From contig NW_026864100.1 in the NCBI RefSeq assembly GCF_026571515.1, positions 124,001 through 188,000 of the forward strand: DNA of 64,000 bases, in the 5' to 3' direction. Positions within the stretch are counted from its first letter, which is position 1; each line of letters opens with the position of its first letter. Origin of the DNA: Ruditapes philippinarum. Lineage: Eukaryota. A program made the position numbers and the translations under genes. This document shows positions 57,417 through 60,313 of the stretch, in pieces. Below the pieces are notes generated by a model. The model ran no database searches, was not told the DNA's origin, and was given only the letters and a program-made list of their open reading frames with translations.

Positions 57417-57486
57417 TATATATAACGGGCTGCGCAATCCTGTGTTATTCGTCTTGATCTAAATAAAATCATCATCAAAGCTCAAG
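57417..57486 (+). promoter_or_regulatory. TATA box and non-coding exon 1 of the cysteine-rich peptide gene
   Basis: tatatataa at 57417, Inr-like ttattc about 30 bp downstream, strong donor AAG|gtaagg at 57486/7. Confidence 0.65.
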
Positions 57487-58535
57487 GTAAGGCTTTAATT
57501 TATTATTGTTTATTAGTATTTAGGTTTTAGCTATAACAGTATTCATATGTTTCATAATTTAGAAATTATAGCAAATGATTTGTATTTATTTTAACTTATT
57601 TCATTGGCATGATTTCAACTTCTTTTTACAGAAGGCAGAAGAAAATTAATCGTATTGACATTTTGAAAAAGGCAAACAATGCATAGCGTTTTAACAAGAT
57701 TTCGTAATTTTTATATCAACGGCTTGTGGCAATGCTACAGACCTCCTCATTGCGTTGTTAAATTGATAGATTATCGCTACGTAAATTCATAATTAAGATT
57801 TGAATTGTTTTATAGAAATATATGAAGCTAAAATGTTGAGATAGATTCTATTGTTAATTACGTTTCAGCCTTATGAACTTAATCACAATAACACACTTGT
57901 ACAGTTGTTACGTCATGATATTCTAAGAAATATCATTGTGATAATAGCGTGATATAGAGGCATGGGTCTGTATATACTCCATGAATTGCACGAAAAGTGA
58001 AATATTATTAGTTATAGACGTTGCTGACAGGATATACAGGAACATATAGCTTGAATTAAATAAACGTGAATTGTTACTCTTTTGTCTAAATATATTGTAC
58101 TATAATCCAACGCTTACCTATTGTGCAAAACCGGACTTTTTCGATGATGGCATCGATAGCGTTTTTGATATATTATGTACAAGGACTTAGCATACTAGTA
58201 AATAAGAATAGTAAACAAATCGATATAATCCCTATGGACCATCAATATCCTAATAGTGTTTGAAATATTTTAACGTGCTTACAATATTAGAAACAGTCTA
58301 AGACGAAATGACTAACTTTATATTATTACATAATTAATGCAGTTTTCAGTCTTATATACAAATGCGATGTAATACTGAGATATACATGTATTTGGATATG
58401 TTGCAAAAAGCAAGCTTTTATAAAATGCACAGTGTTCTGGCATATATAAATTGCAATTTGTAAGACAATAAATTCTCCTTTTTTCCAGTAGTTGTGAACA
58501 AAAGTACTCTGATTGTTGTCATACGTACCACGAAA

Positions 58536-59919
58536 ATGGCTCGACTTCTCTGTTTAGTTGTTCTGTTGACCTTGGTATGAACGTTCATCTAGGTTCATCT
58601 ATTTCTTATGTGTTTTTTAAAAATTAAAAAAACCCCTATTTCAAATTTGGGGGTTTTTTTCATTTAGCATGTTTTAAAAATCACGTCAAACATTAAAAGT
58701 CCAACACGTTTTCACAAAGTCCAAAAAACGCCATTTTTTCAATAAATATTCCCAAACTGAAACTGGGAGTAATTTTAAAAGTTTTGTAAAAGAATTAAAA
58801 ATGAAATGTAACACTAAAGAAACATTTTTAAAGTTTTTTTAATAATTTTGACTGAAAAATGATTATAATGTATCTGTTATTTTAGCCTTACTCGAATATA
58901 TCATCATATTTTATCTGAAATAATACATTTTGGTGGTTGTTCTCTATCTTAGTGTAAACTCACAGTTACTTTCTTATCTTCAGACAATTATCCAAACTAC
59001 GGACGCAATCGCAAAGGACTGCCAAGACAAAGAATATTTAGACGTATGTTACATTAGATATTTATGATTGTACCCAGCAGGCACATCAACGTTGTTTCAA
59101 CGTTGAATTATGGTCAGATTTCAACGTTGAAATAAGGTTGGATTTATATTCGGATTTGAAAGTTGAAACAACGTTGAAATTCCAACGTTTGATACAACGT
59201 TGCAGGTACAACGTTGAAGTTTCAATGTCATTTCAACGTTGAAAACCCACCATACTTTAATTTTTGGATATAAAGCACCAAGTTACCAAGTTTAACAAAT
59301 ATCAAGACAATATTAAATACTTCAGATATTTTATTTAAAAAACACAGTTCAGGTGCAGCATATGTCTCTGGACGTATGTTACATTAGATATTTATGATTG
59401 TATATGATAAACAATTGTTAATTCAATTTATTCAATACTACAATATTTATAACGCCTGTGTCATATGTTTGCTGGTAATGTAATCAACGTAAAAGCTCGG
59501 ATAACTTTACCAGTACTCCCATACTTTCCAATTACTAGAAGTTAAAAATATTTGTAATAAGCGATCGAATAGAAACTGATACCTGATACCCTAAGTGTCT
59601 TGTATACATGTCATGAAGTAATTGCAATAAAACAACAGAAGCGAAAGATGGTCCAGGTAATTTACCAATAAGTACATTTTTGGAAACTATATAATAACAA
59701 GAAACCAACCATAAAAGGTTTTGAGAAATATGCATGTACATAAAAGCATTTTTTAGGGACAAAATGGGCCTTTAAGTTAATTTGACAGACATTTCATTCT
59801 ACTTTCAGCGATGTGGCCCTAATGATGAAGGCATATGCACGTGTCCGAACCTAAATGTGAACACGTTTCTAAATTCTGGAAAAACTCCATGCAACAATCT
59901 TGTCTGCAGAAAACCGTGA
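58536..59919 (+). CDS. 69-aa secreted cysteine-rich peptide (signal peptide + 6 Cys)
   Basis: Coding exons 58536-58574, 58984-59043 and 59809-59919, all phase-0 GT-AG. Product MARLLCLVVLLTLTIIQTTDAIAKDCQDKEYLDRCGPNDEGICTCPNLNVNTFLNSGKTPCNNLVCRKP; AAAATGG start context; AATAAA near 59975. Confidence 0.82.
59073..59370. mobile_element. Truncated DNA transposon end (cccagca terminus, caacgttg subterminal repeats; EnSpm/CMC-like)
   Basis: Multiple tcaacgttga palindromes; flanked by a 32-bp direct duplication. Confidence 0.55.
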
Positions 59920-60313
59920 TGATCAAAGTGGATACAGCCAACTTATTTGATATTTCTGATGAACTGACCTAGCTAATAAAATAGCATACAAGCATTATAT
60001 CACTTTTTGTTTTAATTGTTCACATGCGTAGTTATAGTCTCAAAATAATATATATATATATCTAATATACCCGATTTTATTAACCTGTCAGTCGCATATT
60101 TTAGGTCAGTCGTTATGGTTGTAAATACAGTCTAAAGATATAGAACTTTGCCAATATATACTATGCCATTTTGTCAATAACTTGCCGGAAACGATCAAAA
60201 ATAAGACAAGCTTATTTTTTGAGACCATTACAGTTTATCTGACAATCAAGAAACGCAACAACAAAAATCGAACAAATTATAAAACGTCCTTCAAAAGCTA
60301 GAACTACAAATAT

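Follow-up and report, generated by a model that had tools for sequence, protein, structure and literature searches.

Families of lineage-specific, disulfide-rich secreted peptides are already well known from bivalves, which limits the surprise that a further one can cause. The molluscan I84 inhibitors (cvSI, scSI) are described as secreted, near-neutral to acidic proteins with 12 cysteines in two six-Cys modules, which are tandemly expanded (PMC9198434), the MgCRP-I peptides of Mytilus as products of genes with an untranslated region (UTR) exon and small coding exons, which have six cysteines, a conserved signal and a variable mature part (PMC4558851), and pacifastins as having the core C-N-x-C-x-C, with an Asn directly after Cys2 (PMC13388995). 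Here, a gene for a small six-Cys peptide was analyzed, which is located on a stretch of 64,000 nucleotides (nt) from the genome of the clam Ruditapes philippinarum (contig NW_026864100.1, positions 124,001 to 188,000, called the window in the following) and which had been predicted in a first-pass annotation from the sequence alone. The gene was found to be transcribed, and it probably originated from a two-domain gene by deletion of the second domain. The cysteine frame of the remaining domain did not agree with any of the families tested, and it is tentatively proposed that the peptide acts as a secreted protease inhibitor.

The gene is encoded on the forward strand and is preceded by a TATA box (TATATATAA, 57417-57425), which ends a conserved promoter block (57377..57425). 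Exon 1 is non-coding (57395..57486 in a contig of run X2, donor AAG/GTAAGG). Its 5′-end would lie at about 57447 if transcription is driven by the TATA box, while one contig extends to 57395, and an ATG at 57401 within this longest version opens an upstream frame of 18 codons. Exon 2 (58489..58574) contains 47 nt of UTR and, from the ATG at 58536, 13 codons of hydrophobic signal core up to a phase-0 donor. Exon 3 (58984..59043) has 20 codons, which encode the end of the signal peptide and Cys1, and the coding part of exon 4 (59809..59919) has 36 codons, which include Cys2 to Cys6, and the stop codon. All introns (57487-58488, 58575-58983 and 59044-59808) have GT..AG borders, and both coding introns are in phase 0. 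The 3′-UTR (59920..59997) contains an AATAAA hexamer (59975-59980) and ends with the poly(A) site at 59997. The TATA box, the UTR exon, the three phase-0 coding exons, the splice sites and the polyA signal were thus all present at the predicted positions. The spliced coding sequence of 210 nt on exons 2 to 4 is devoid of internal stop codons, and its translation reproduced the predicted precursor of 69 amino acids (aa) with a mature part of 48 aa and a cysteine spacing of 8, 7, 1, 15 and 4. It was also verified that the gene is hidden from the track of open reading frames, because no open frame of 100 aa overlaps it. The signal-like N-terminus has a hydrophobic core, and the (-3,-1) rule is a common guide to signal cleavage sites; together with hydropathy and an Ala21 that is invariant in ten paralogs it predicts cleavage after Ala21. 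A seventh cysteine (residue 6) lies inside the predicted signal peptide, and three disulfides are predicted for the remaining six. The mature peptide is near-neutral, as had been proposed (six Lys and Arg versus six Asp and Glu, net charge 0, isoelectric point 6.2), 10 of its 48 residues are hydrophobic, and a dibasic pro-peptide site was not found in the peptide sequence.

Transcript evidence was obtained from 8 of 24 listed public runs, all of which were examined as assembled contigs. Such data carry neither expression level, absence nor tissue, and thus the depths of the exon-4 contigs (about 2 to 19,900) are unusable. The junctions 58574/58984 and 59043/59809 were each present in four of the eight runs (X1, X2, X3 and X16, from four studies), and the junction 57486/58489 was present in one (X2), so that all three proposed junctions were recovered. 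X2 contained a single contig of 452 nt across all four exons, which had 13 A residues followed by adapter sequence at 59997, 17 nt past the AATAAA hexamer, and the genome is not A-rich at this position. The four runs are not recorded as RNA (three are guessed to be RNA, one is of unstated type), and an RNA origin of their contigs was deduced from the presence of the spliced joints. The 5′-end of the X2 contig (57395) lies 22 nt ahead of the TATA box, and therefore the transcription start site is unproven. Two of the remaining runs yielded an exon-4 contig only and two yielded intron-spanning genomic contigs; exon 1 was not covered by the contigs of four of the eight runs. Most sequence words of exon 4 were present in 20 of the 24 listed runs (12 studies), while X21-X24 shared no words with exon 4, which is not readable as absence. 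At least four coding differences were found in other runs among those listed, three of them synonymous and one a Thr-to-Ala exchange in the signal peptide. Taken together, the gene is real, spliced and polyadenylated. X1 additionally contained a contig of 999 nt that runs from intron 1 into exon 2 (57567-58574). With 26 substitutions and 35 gap letters it stems from a divergent allele, either as unspliced RNA or as DNA.

As a check for homologs, the genome of R. philippinarum was searched with exon 4, which detected 22 places, and with the corresponding paralog exon, which detected 27, together 28 distinct loci; a query with domain 2 added two further loci. Some of them are probably haplotypes (L019/L020, L021/L036, L039-L043), and the gene number is then near or below 30. 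Ten paralogs are annotated as uncharacterized R. philippinarum proteins of 101-131 aa (LOC132714881, LOC132732056, LOC132747332, LOC132729428, LOC132741760, LOC132733381, LOC132757017, LOC132724544, LOC132757031 and LOC132758170). The paralogs share with the window gene a signal exon of 12-13 codons, a Cys1 exon of 18-21 codons, the exon with Cys2 to Cys6, the positions and phases of the introns, the promoter block and the 3′-end. Their cysteine spacing is 8, 5-7, 1, 15 and 4-5, and the domain-1 frame with its invariant Cys, Gly, Asn and Asn residues is kept in the window gene. In contrast to the window gene, the annotated paralogs have an intron 4 in phase 1 and a fifth exon for a second six-Cys domain, so that the usual family member has five exons and 12 cysteines in two domains. 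The proposed lineage restriction agreed with the searches made, in which the family was confined to the clam. The gene is no orphan, however, but one of about 30 loci and a one-domain, apparently deletion-derived member among them.

A domain-2 exon was detected downstream in 23 of the 28 loci, open in 18 and broken by a stop or frameshift in five (L034:591-749, L028:6742-6905, L043:3233-3392, L041:2622-2783 and L040:1059-1190). The other five were without domain 2 in the stretch fetched, namely the window gene, L031, L042, L014 and L016, of which the last two end at a contig end. In L031, the donor of intron 4 is still present and the 3′-end resembles that of the family, and no domain-2 exon was seen. 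It seems that domain 2 was lost repeatedly in this family. Five family genes form a tandem cluster within 48 kb (G000:C8049:330984-378623), and in L030 (G000:C14785:33830-37971) a distance of about 3 kb separates two family genes of opposite orientation, of which the second, L014, has a frameshift in exon 4.

In ten of 20 upstream regions of paralogs, the block of promoter and exon 1 aligned better than any of 40 shuffles. In ten of the 20 paralogs the motif CAGATG, which we take to be an E-box, precedes the TATA box at a distance of 8-25 nt, compared with a background of 0.09 per 3 kb, and in eight of these TGACA lies just upstream of it (e.g., L017, L018, L024, L029 and L033). Both motifs are altered in the window gene promoter. 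The conserved combination of CAGATG and TATA box suggests expression in a specific secretory cell type, which would be compatible with a ligand of a receptor or channel or a gamete-associated recognition protein, acting in signaling, spawning or fertilization, as would the small size, secretion, fast evolution and species restriction of the family. Such a role appears improbable, as a dibasic pro-peptide site is missing and 5 of the 28 loci are broken in domain 2; many broken copies would be unusual for a core signaling ligand.

The junction of the probable deletion was then located. The similarity to the paralogs ends at 59910-59911, the site of their intron-4 donor. Beyond the putative junction 59911..59912 the paralogs continue with the phase-1 donor, intron 4 and the domain-2 exon, whereas the window gene continues with Lys, Pro, the stop codon and the 3′-end of the family. 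In 13 of 18 paralogs, the tail (59912-60040) matches the sequence that begins at the end of domain 2 and includes the 3′-UTR (at most 2 of 300 shuffles were as good), while for the other five 3′-ends 6-127 of 300 shuffles were as good. None of 16 paralog intron-4 starts matched the tail, which rules out a retained intron 4. An assembly error at the junction is also ruled out, because it is bridged by listed contigs in seven of the eight runs; two of these contigs begin in intron 3. A profile search did not detect domain-2 sequence in the window or in the next 10 kb, and the transcript ends at 59997. The window gene ends with Cys-Arg-Lys-Pro and domain 2 of some paralogs ends with Cys-Arg-x-Pro, and this likeness suggests a deletion from the Cys-Arg that ends domain 1 to the end of domain 2. 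On the minus strand of the window, ten codons at 53294-53323 are similar to a portion of domain 2, with an E of 0.012 for the window; they do not match the domain-2 profile and are probably a chance similarity. The idea that domain 1 is a copy of domain 2 was rejected (hhalign 5%).

In a phylogenetic tree, which did not include L014, L042, L043 and those loci whose domain-1 exon is incomplete, the window gene formed a long lone branch with 59-70% nucleotide identity to 23 paralog rows. The minimum-variance root was located on this branch in none of 60 bootstrap trees, which favors a loss over an ancestral one-domain state. Several points weigh against this: the position of the window gene in the tree is weakly supported (bootstrap 32-70), the clock used for rooting is rough and no outgroup was included, and L031 and L042, which may or may not be working genes, are also without domain 2 in the stretch fetched. 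All in all, a derived deletion from the Cys-Arg that closes domain 1 to the end of domain 2 is regarded as probable.

The ratio of nonsynonymous to synonymous substitution rates (dN/dS) of the mature part was 0.34 in comparison with 15 full-length paralogs, at a synonymous divergence (dS) of about 1.2 on the long lone branch. As the gene is old, judged from its 59-70% identity, and constrained, domain 1 probably works alone. These values also bear on the view that the gene is a truncated, transcribed paralog without a function. Half of the mature protein of the family is lost, the CAGATG of the promoter is altered, no 69-aa product was present among the near-length proteins searched, and the deletion may have occurred at any point of the long branch, which weakens the argument from constraint. 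On the other hand, the reading frame has been kept over this branch together with all six cysteines, both Asn and three introns, and a functionless remnant is thus considered very improbable.

Similarity and fold searches were performed with exon 4 and the annotated paralogs, which stood in for the spliced 69-aa peptide. A domain-1 profile yielded seven matches among 1.84 billion protein representatives, i.e., five clam paralogs and two metagenome proteins, which look like translations of clam exon 4 and adjoining intron sequence. Matches of the same kinds were obtained in word-based searches (12 and 11). No named homolog outside R. philippinarum was found among these representatives; relatives in other venerids may be missed because small genes with many exons are often not annotated. 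A Pfam search revealed no family for eight exon-4 peptides and one chance match (E 0.72) for 24 domain-1 rows, and a DX module below the Pfam cut-off in two of ten paralogs (E 0.007-0.02). Kazal, Kunitz, EGF, TIL and other disulfide domains of Pfam gave no profile match. Typical patterns of defensins are CxxxC...CxC for the CS-alpha-beta type and a terminal CC spacing for big and beta-defensins; these motifs were absent from all 11 family proteins analyzed, again without a Pfam match, in agreement with the first-pass annotation, which had seen no fit to defensins, Kazal or Kunitz domains. The best matches among sequences of the PDB were ribosomal L33 and CadC (E 0.16 or worse), none of 57 candidates among near-length proteins (17-70 aa) matched, and in the ESM Atlas the best feature scores of 0.76-0.78 were not accompanied by a sequence match. 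The proposed AlphaFold and Foldseek check was performed with domain 1 of paralog P0001. The model had a predicted local distance difference test (pLDDT) value of 72, and two of the five models were good. It showed three strands, one short helix and a C4-C5 loop that was unstructured and of low confidence. No Foldseek PDB row was obtained at E 10, and a further fold search gave one chance viral row. The model of a full-length paralog (pLDDT 69) had no Foldseek match at E 0.001 or better and no VIA match; weak Foldseek rows to squash inhibitors/knottins were tentatively assigned to domain 2. The missing fold matches do not show that the fold is new. No description of the family was found in the literature searched, including the accessible parts of PMC4558851, PMC5484132, PMC11767717, PMC9198434, PMC12894363 and PMC13388995; supplements and subscription journals were outside the coverage, so that an earlier mention is possible. 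Likewise, six of the paralog LOC identifiers had no match in main texts, while supplementary tables, the likely place for such identifiers, were outside the search.

The nearest resemblance was found to pacifastins (PF05375). Common features are C3-x-C4, C5-x4-C6, a Gly before C5, a predicted three-strand sheet and a phase-1 intron just past C6, which is present in many clam pacifastin exons. The pacifastin-type spacing Cys5-x-P1-P1′-x-Cys6 and the Gly of the C4-C5 loop occur in the window peptide and in nine of ten paralogs. Against shuffles with fixed cysteines, the similarity reached z values of 1.8 on average and of 1.3 in the case of the window peptide, from rows that are not independent and for an idea that arose post hoc. 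On the other hand, Asn after Cys2 was found in none of 11 family proteins, the C2-C3 loop has 5-7 residues versus 2 in pacifastins and the C4-C5 loop 15 versus 6-7, the C5-C6 loop of the family is conserved instead of variable, and the family has an internal phase-0 intron. The hhalign value was 2.6%, and none of 75 pacifastin matches in the clam genome lies at a family locus. The pacifastin disulfides are 1-4, 2-6 and 3-5, and the comparison with domain 1 of the family rests on the model with a pLDDT of 72. The family was therefore not assigned to the pacifastins, in view of the lack of Asn after Cys2, the loop lengths, the hhalign value and the separate loci. A Cys-Arg-Lys ending apparently common to clam pacifastins and the window peptide was an artefact, as the pacifastin version had been read from an intron. 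In the clam genome, 31 of the 75 pacifastin matches are single-domain exons, many of them near-identical, at G000:C9921:136741-191822, and they form a very large multi-domain pacifastin gene or an array.

The two bivalve families introduced above also differ. Like I84 inhibitors, two-domain members of the clam family have 12 cysteines in two six-Cys modules, a tandem expansion and a near-neutral charge, but the motifs C-X7-C-X4-C-T-C and C-X5-C-X4-C-H-C were absent from all 11 proteins, and I84 genes have three exons with phase-1 introns in contrast to five exons with two phase-0 introns in the clam family. With MgCRP-I the window gene shares the exon layout, six cysteines and the contrast between signal and mature part. 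In contrast, domain 1 has neither a CC pair nor a dibasic pro-peptide, its introns are in phases 0/0 versus 1/2, and the motif C(X3-6)C(X1-7)CC(X3-4)C(X3-5)C was absent from all 11 proteins.

Domain 2 of the paralogs, which is absent from the window gene, has the same six-Cys frame with a final CC as the lustrin cysteine-rich or WR1-type domain (PF14625). The comparison with the lustrin domains of the clam itself gave an hhalign value of 50% (E 1.7e-4), and the ESM Atlas gave leads at 0.76 (TM 0.46); the Pfam lustrin profile was matched by one of 17 members at E 0.013, under the cut-off. In contrast, domain 1 does not resemble lustrin (hhalign 1.3%, z 0). The lustrin-like domain would tie the family to the extracellular matrix, and the peptide might belong to the matrix of shell, periostracum, byssus or mucus. 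However, the Pfam match stayed under the cut-off and the window gene has lost exactly domain 2, yet it stayed constrained, and a matrix role therefore seems unlikely. Nine lustrin-like domain exons of two alternating types are spread over 63 kb at G000:C3013:182613-245653.

Seven close paralog pairs were used to compare the proportions of nonsynonymous and synonymous differences (pN/pS). The ratio was 0.37 for the signal part (Fisher p 0.003) and 1.03 for mature non-Cys sites. On the tree, ten alignment columns had 10-13 amino acid changes, while the cysteines, a Gly and two Asn never changed; four-fold third positions had a mean of 3.4 changes, a value from five columns only. The net charge of domain 1 is -4 to +4 in ten paralogs and 0 in the window gene. 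Judged from these sequence patterns, the family evolves like a host-interface effector. The effector role proposed in the first-pass annotation is therefore plausible, based on the conserved signal and the fast-evolving mature part, while nothing was found that would point to a toxin in particular.

We favor the following model. The window gene would encode a secreted peptide of 48 residues with three predicted disulfides, derived from a two-domain ancestor by deletion of the lustrin-like domain 2. The exposed Cys4-Cys5 loop of 15 residues (59845..59889), the candidate target-binding loop, would be braced by two invariant Asn, a Gly and a Pro and would be offered as bait to a serine protease, which would bind it like a substrate, so that the peptide would be a small protease inhibitor. 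A Thr (59863-65) between the two invariant Asn is present in 18 of 24 rows, and the next column had the most changes of all (13), with Asp, Tyr, Phe, Glu, Val, Ala, Leu, Thr or Lys (the latter, e.g., in L031) among the 24 rows. A Thr at P2 followed by a variable P1 is typical of standard-mechanism inhibitors such as the potato-I, Kazal and Bowman-Birk types. If the Thr is P2 and the next residue P1, the Phe of the window gene (59866-68) would point to chymotrypsin- or subtilisin-like targets. Inhibitor families typically vary at P1 (PMC12894363), and the I84 families are a precedent for tandemly expanded, secreted, disulfide-rich, near-neutral to acidic inhibitors in bivalves (PMC9198434). Several observations weigh against this model. 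Nine other columns had 10-12 changes, so that the changes are not concentrated at the proposed P1, the commonest residue at this position is Asp (6 of 24), an unusual P1, and no sequence match to any inhibitor family of Pfam was found. The P2-Thr pattern was noticed post hoc, and a literature search on it yielded nothing usable. Furthermore, a pN/pS close to 1 can equally result from positive selection and from relaxed constraint, and no single loop had a pN/pS significantly different from 1 in the seven close pairs. A secreted protease inhibitor with the variable C4-C5 loop as bait is given a probability of about 35%.

The spread of the variation over ten columns would also fit a non-lytic host-defense binder or an antifungal or antimicrobial peptide, which would recognize microbial surfaces via several variable loops. 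The conserved signal, the variable mature part and the tandem copies (five on C8049) are reminiscent of mussel MgCRP-I (PMC4558851). The single VIA row for domain 1 of P0001 was the antifungal NFAP2 (Z 2.2, root mean square deviation 1.6, 30 aligned), a score that is counted as uninformative. A net charge of zero, 10 hydrophobic residues out of 48 and the absence of defensin motifs speak against a defense peptide, and the non-cationic character argues against membrane lysis, so that this role is viewed as rather doubtful. To return to protease inhibition, it is tempting to speculate that domain 1 is a new three-disulfide mini-fold that founded a venerid-born inhibitor family, in which the long loop with its Asn braces diversified over about 30 genes so as to target different proteases, and of which the window gene is the natural minimal form, demonstrating that domain 1 suffices; this extended version is held to be unlikely. 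A family of about 30 genes for small secreted proteins in a major farmed clam was neither named nor described in the searches made, and the window gene is a natural minimal construct, with 48 residues short enough to be synthesized and assayed, whose product was not among the proteins retrieved in the searches made. If protease inhibition applies, the family would offer a new inhibitor scaffold and candidate markers for disease resistance.

Intron 3 contains a polymorphic, very high-copy, palindrome-rich insertion (59073..59402). A 32-nt duplication within it copies the exon-3 donor and generates a decoy donor at 59374, which was not used in any contig of the eight runs. An insertion-free allele was present in X15 and X19, and the depth of the insertion reached up to 26,240 versus about 30 in X19. 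Just downstream of the gene, nested long inverted repeats (60311-60642, arms of 40-63 nt, 81-93% complementary) resemble a miniature inverted-repeat transposon. Long tandem repeats with open frames on both strands are located at 6208-6894 and 24323-26438. The neighboring genes in the window include a sulfotransferase exon (6895-8052, minus strand, PF03567), two single-exon rhodopsin-type G protein-coupled receptors (14519-15613 and 29613-30758, both plus strand; PF00001 and PF10324) and a cytidine deaminase fragment (21109-21423, plus strand, PF00383, under the cut-off), and no link of any of these to the six-Cys gene was seen.

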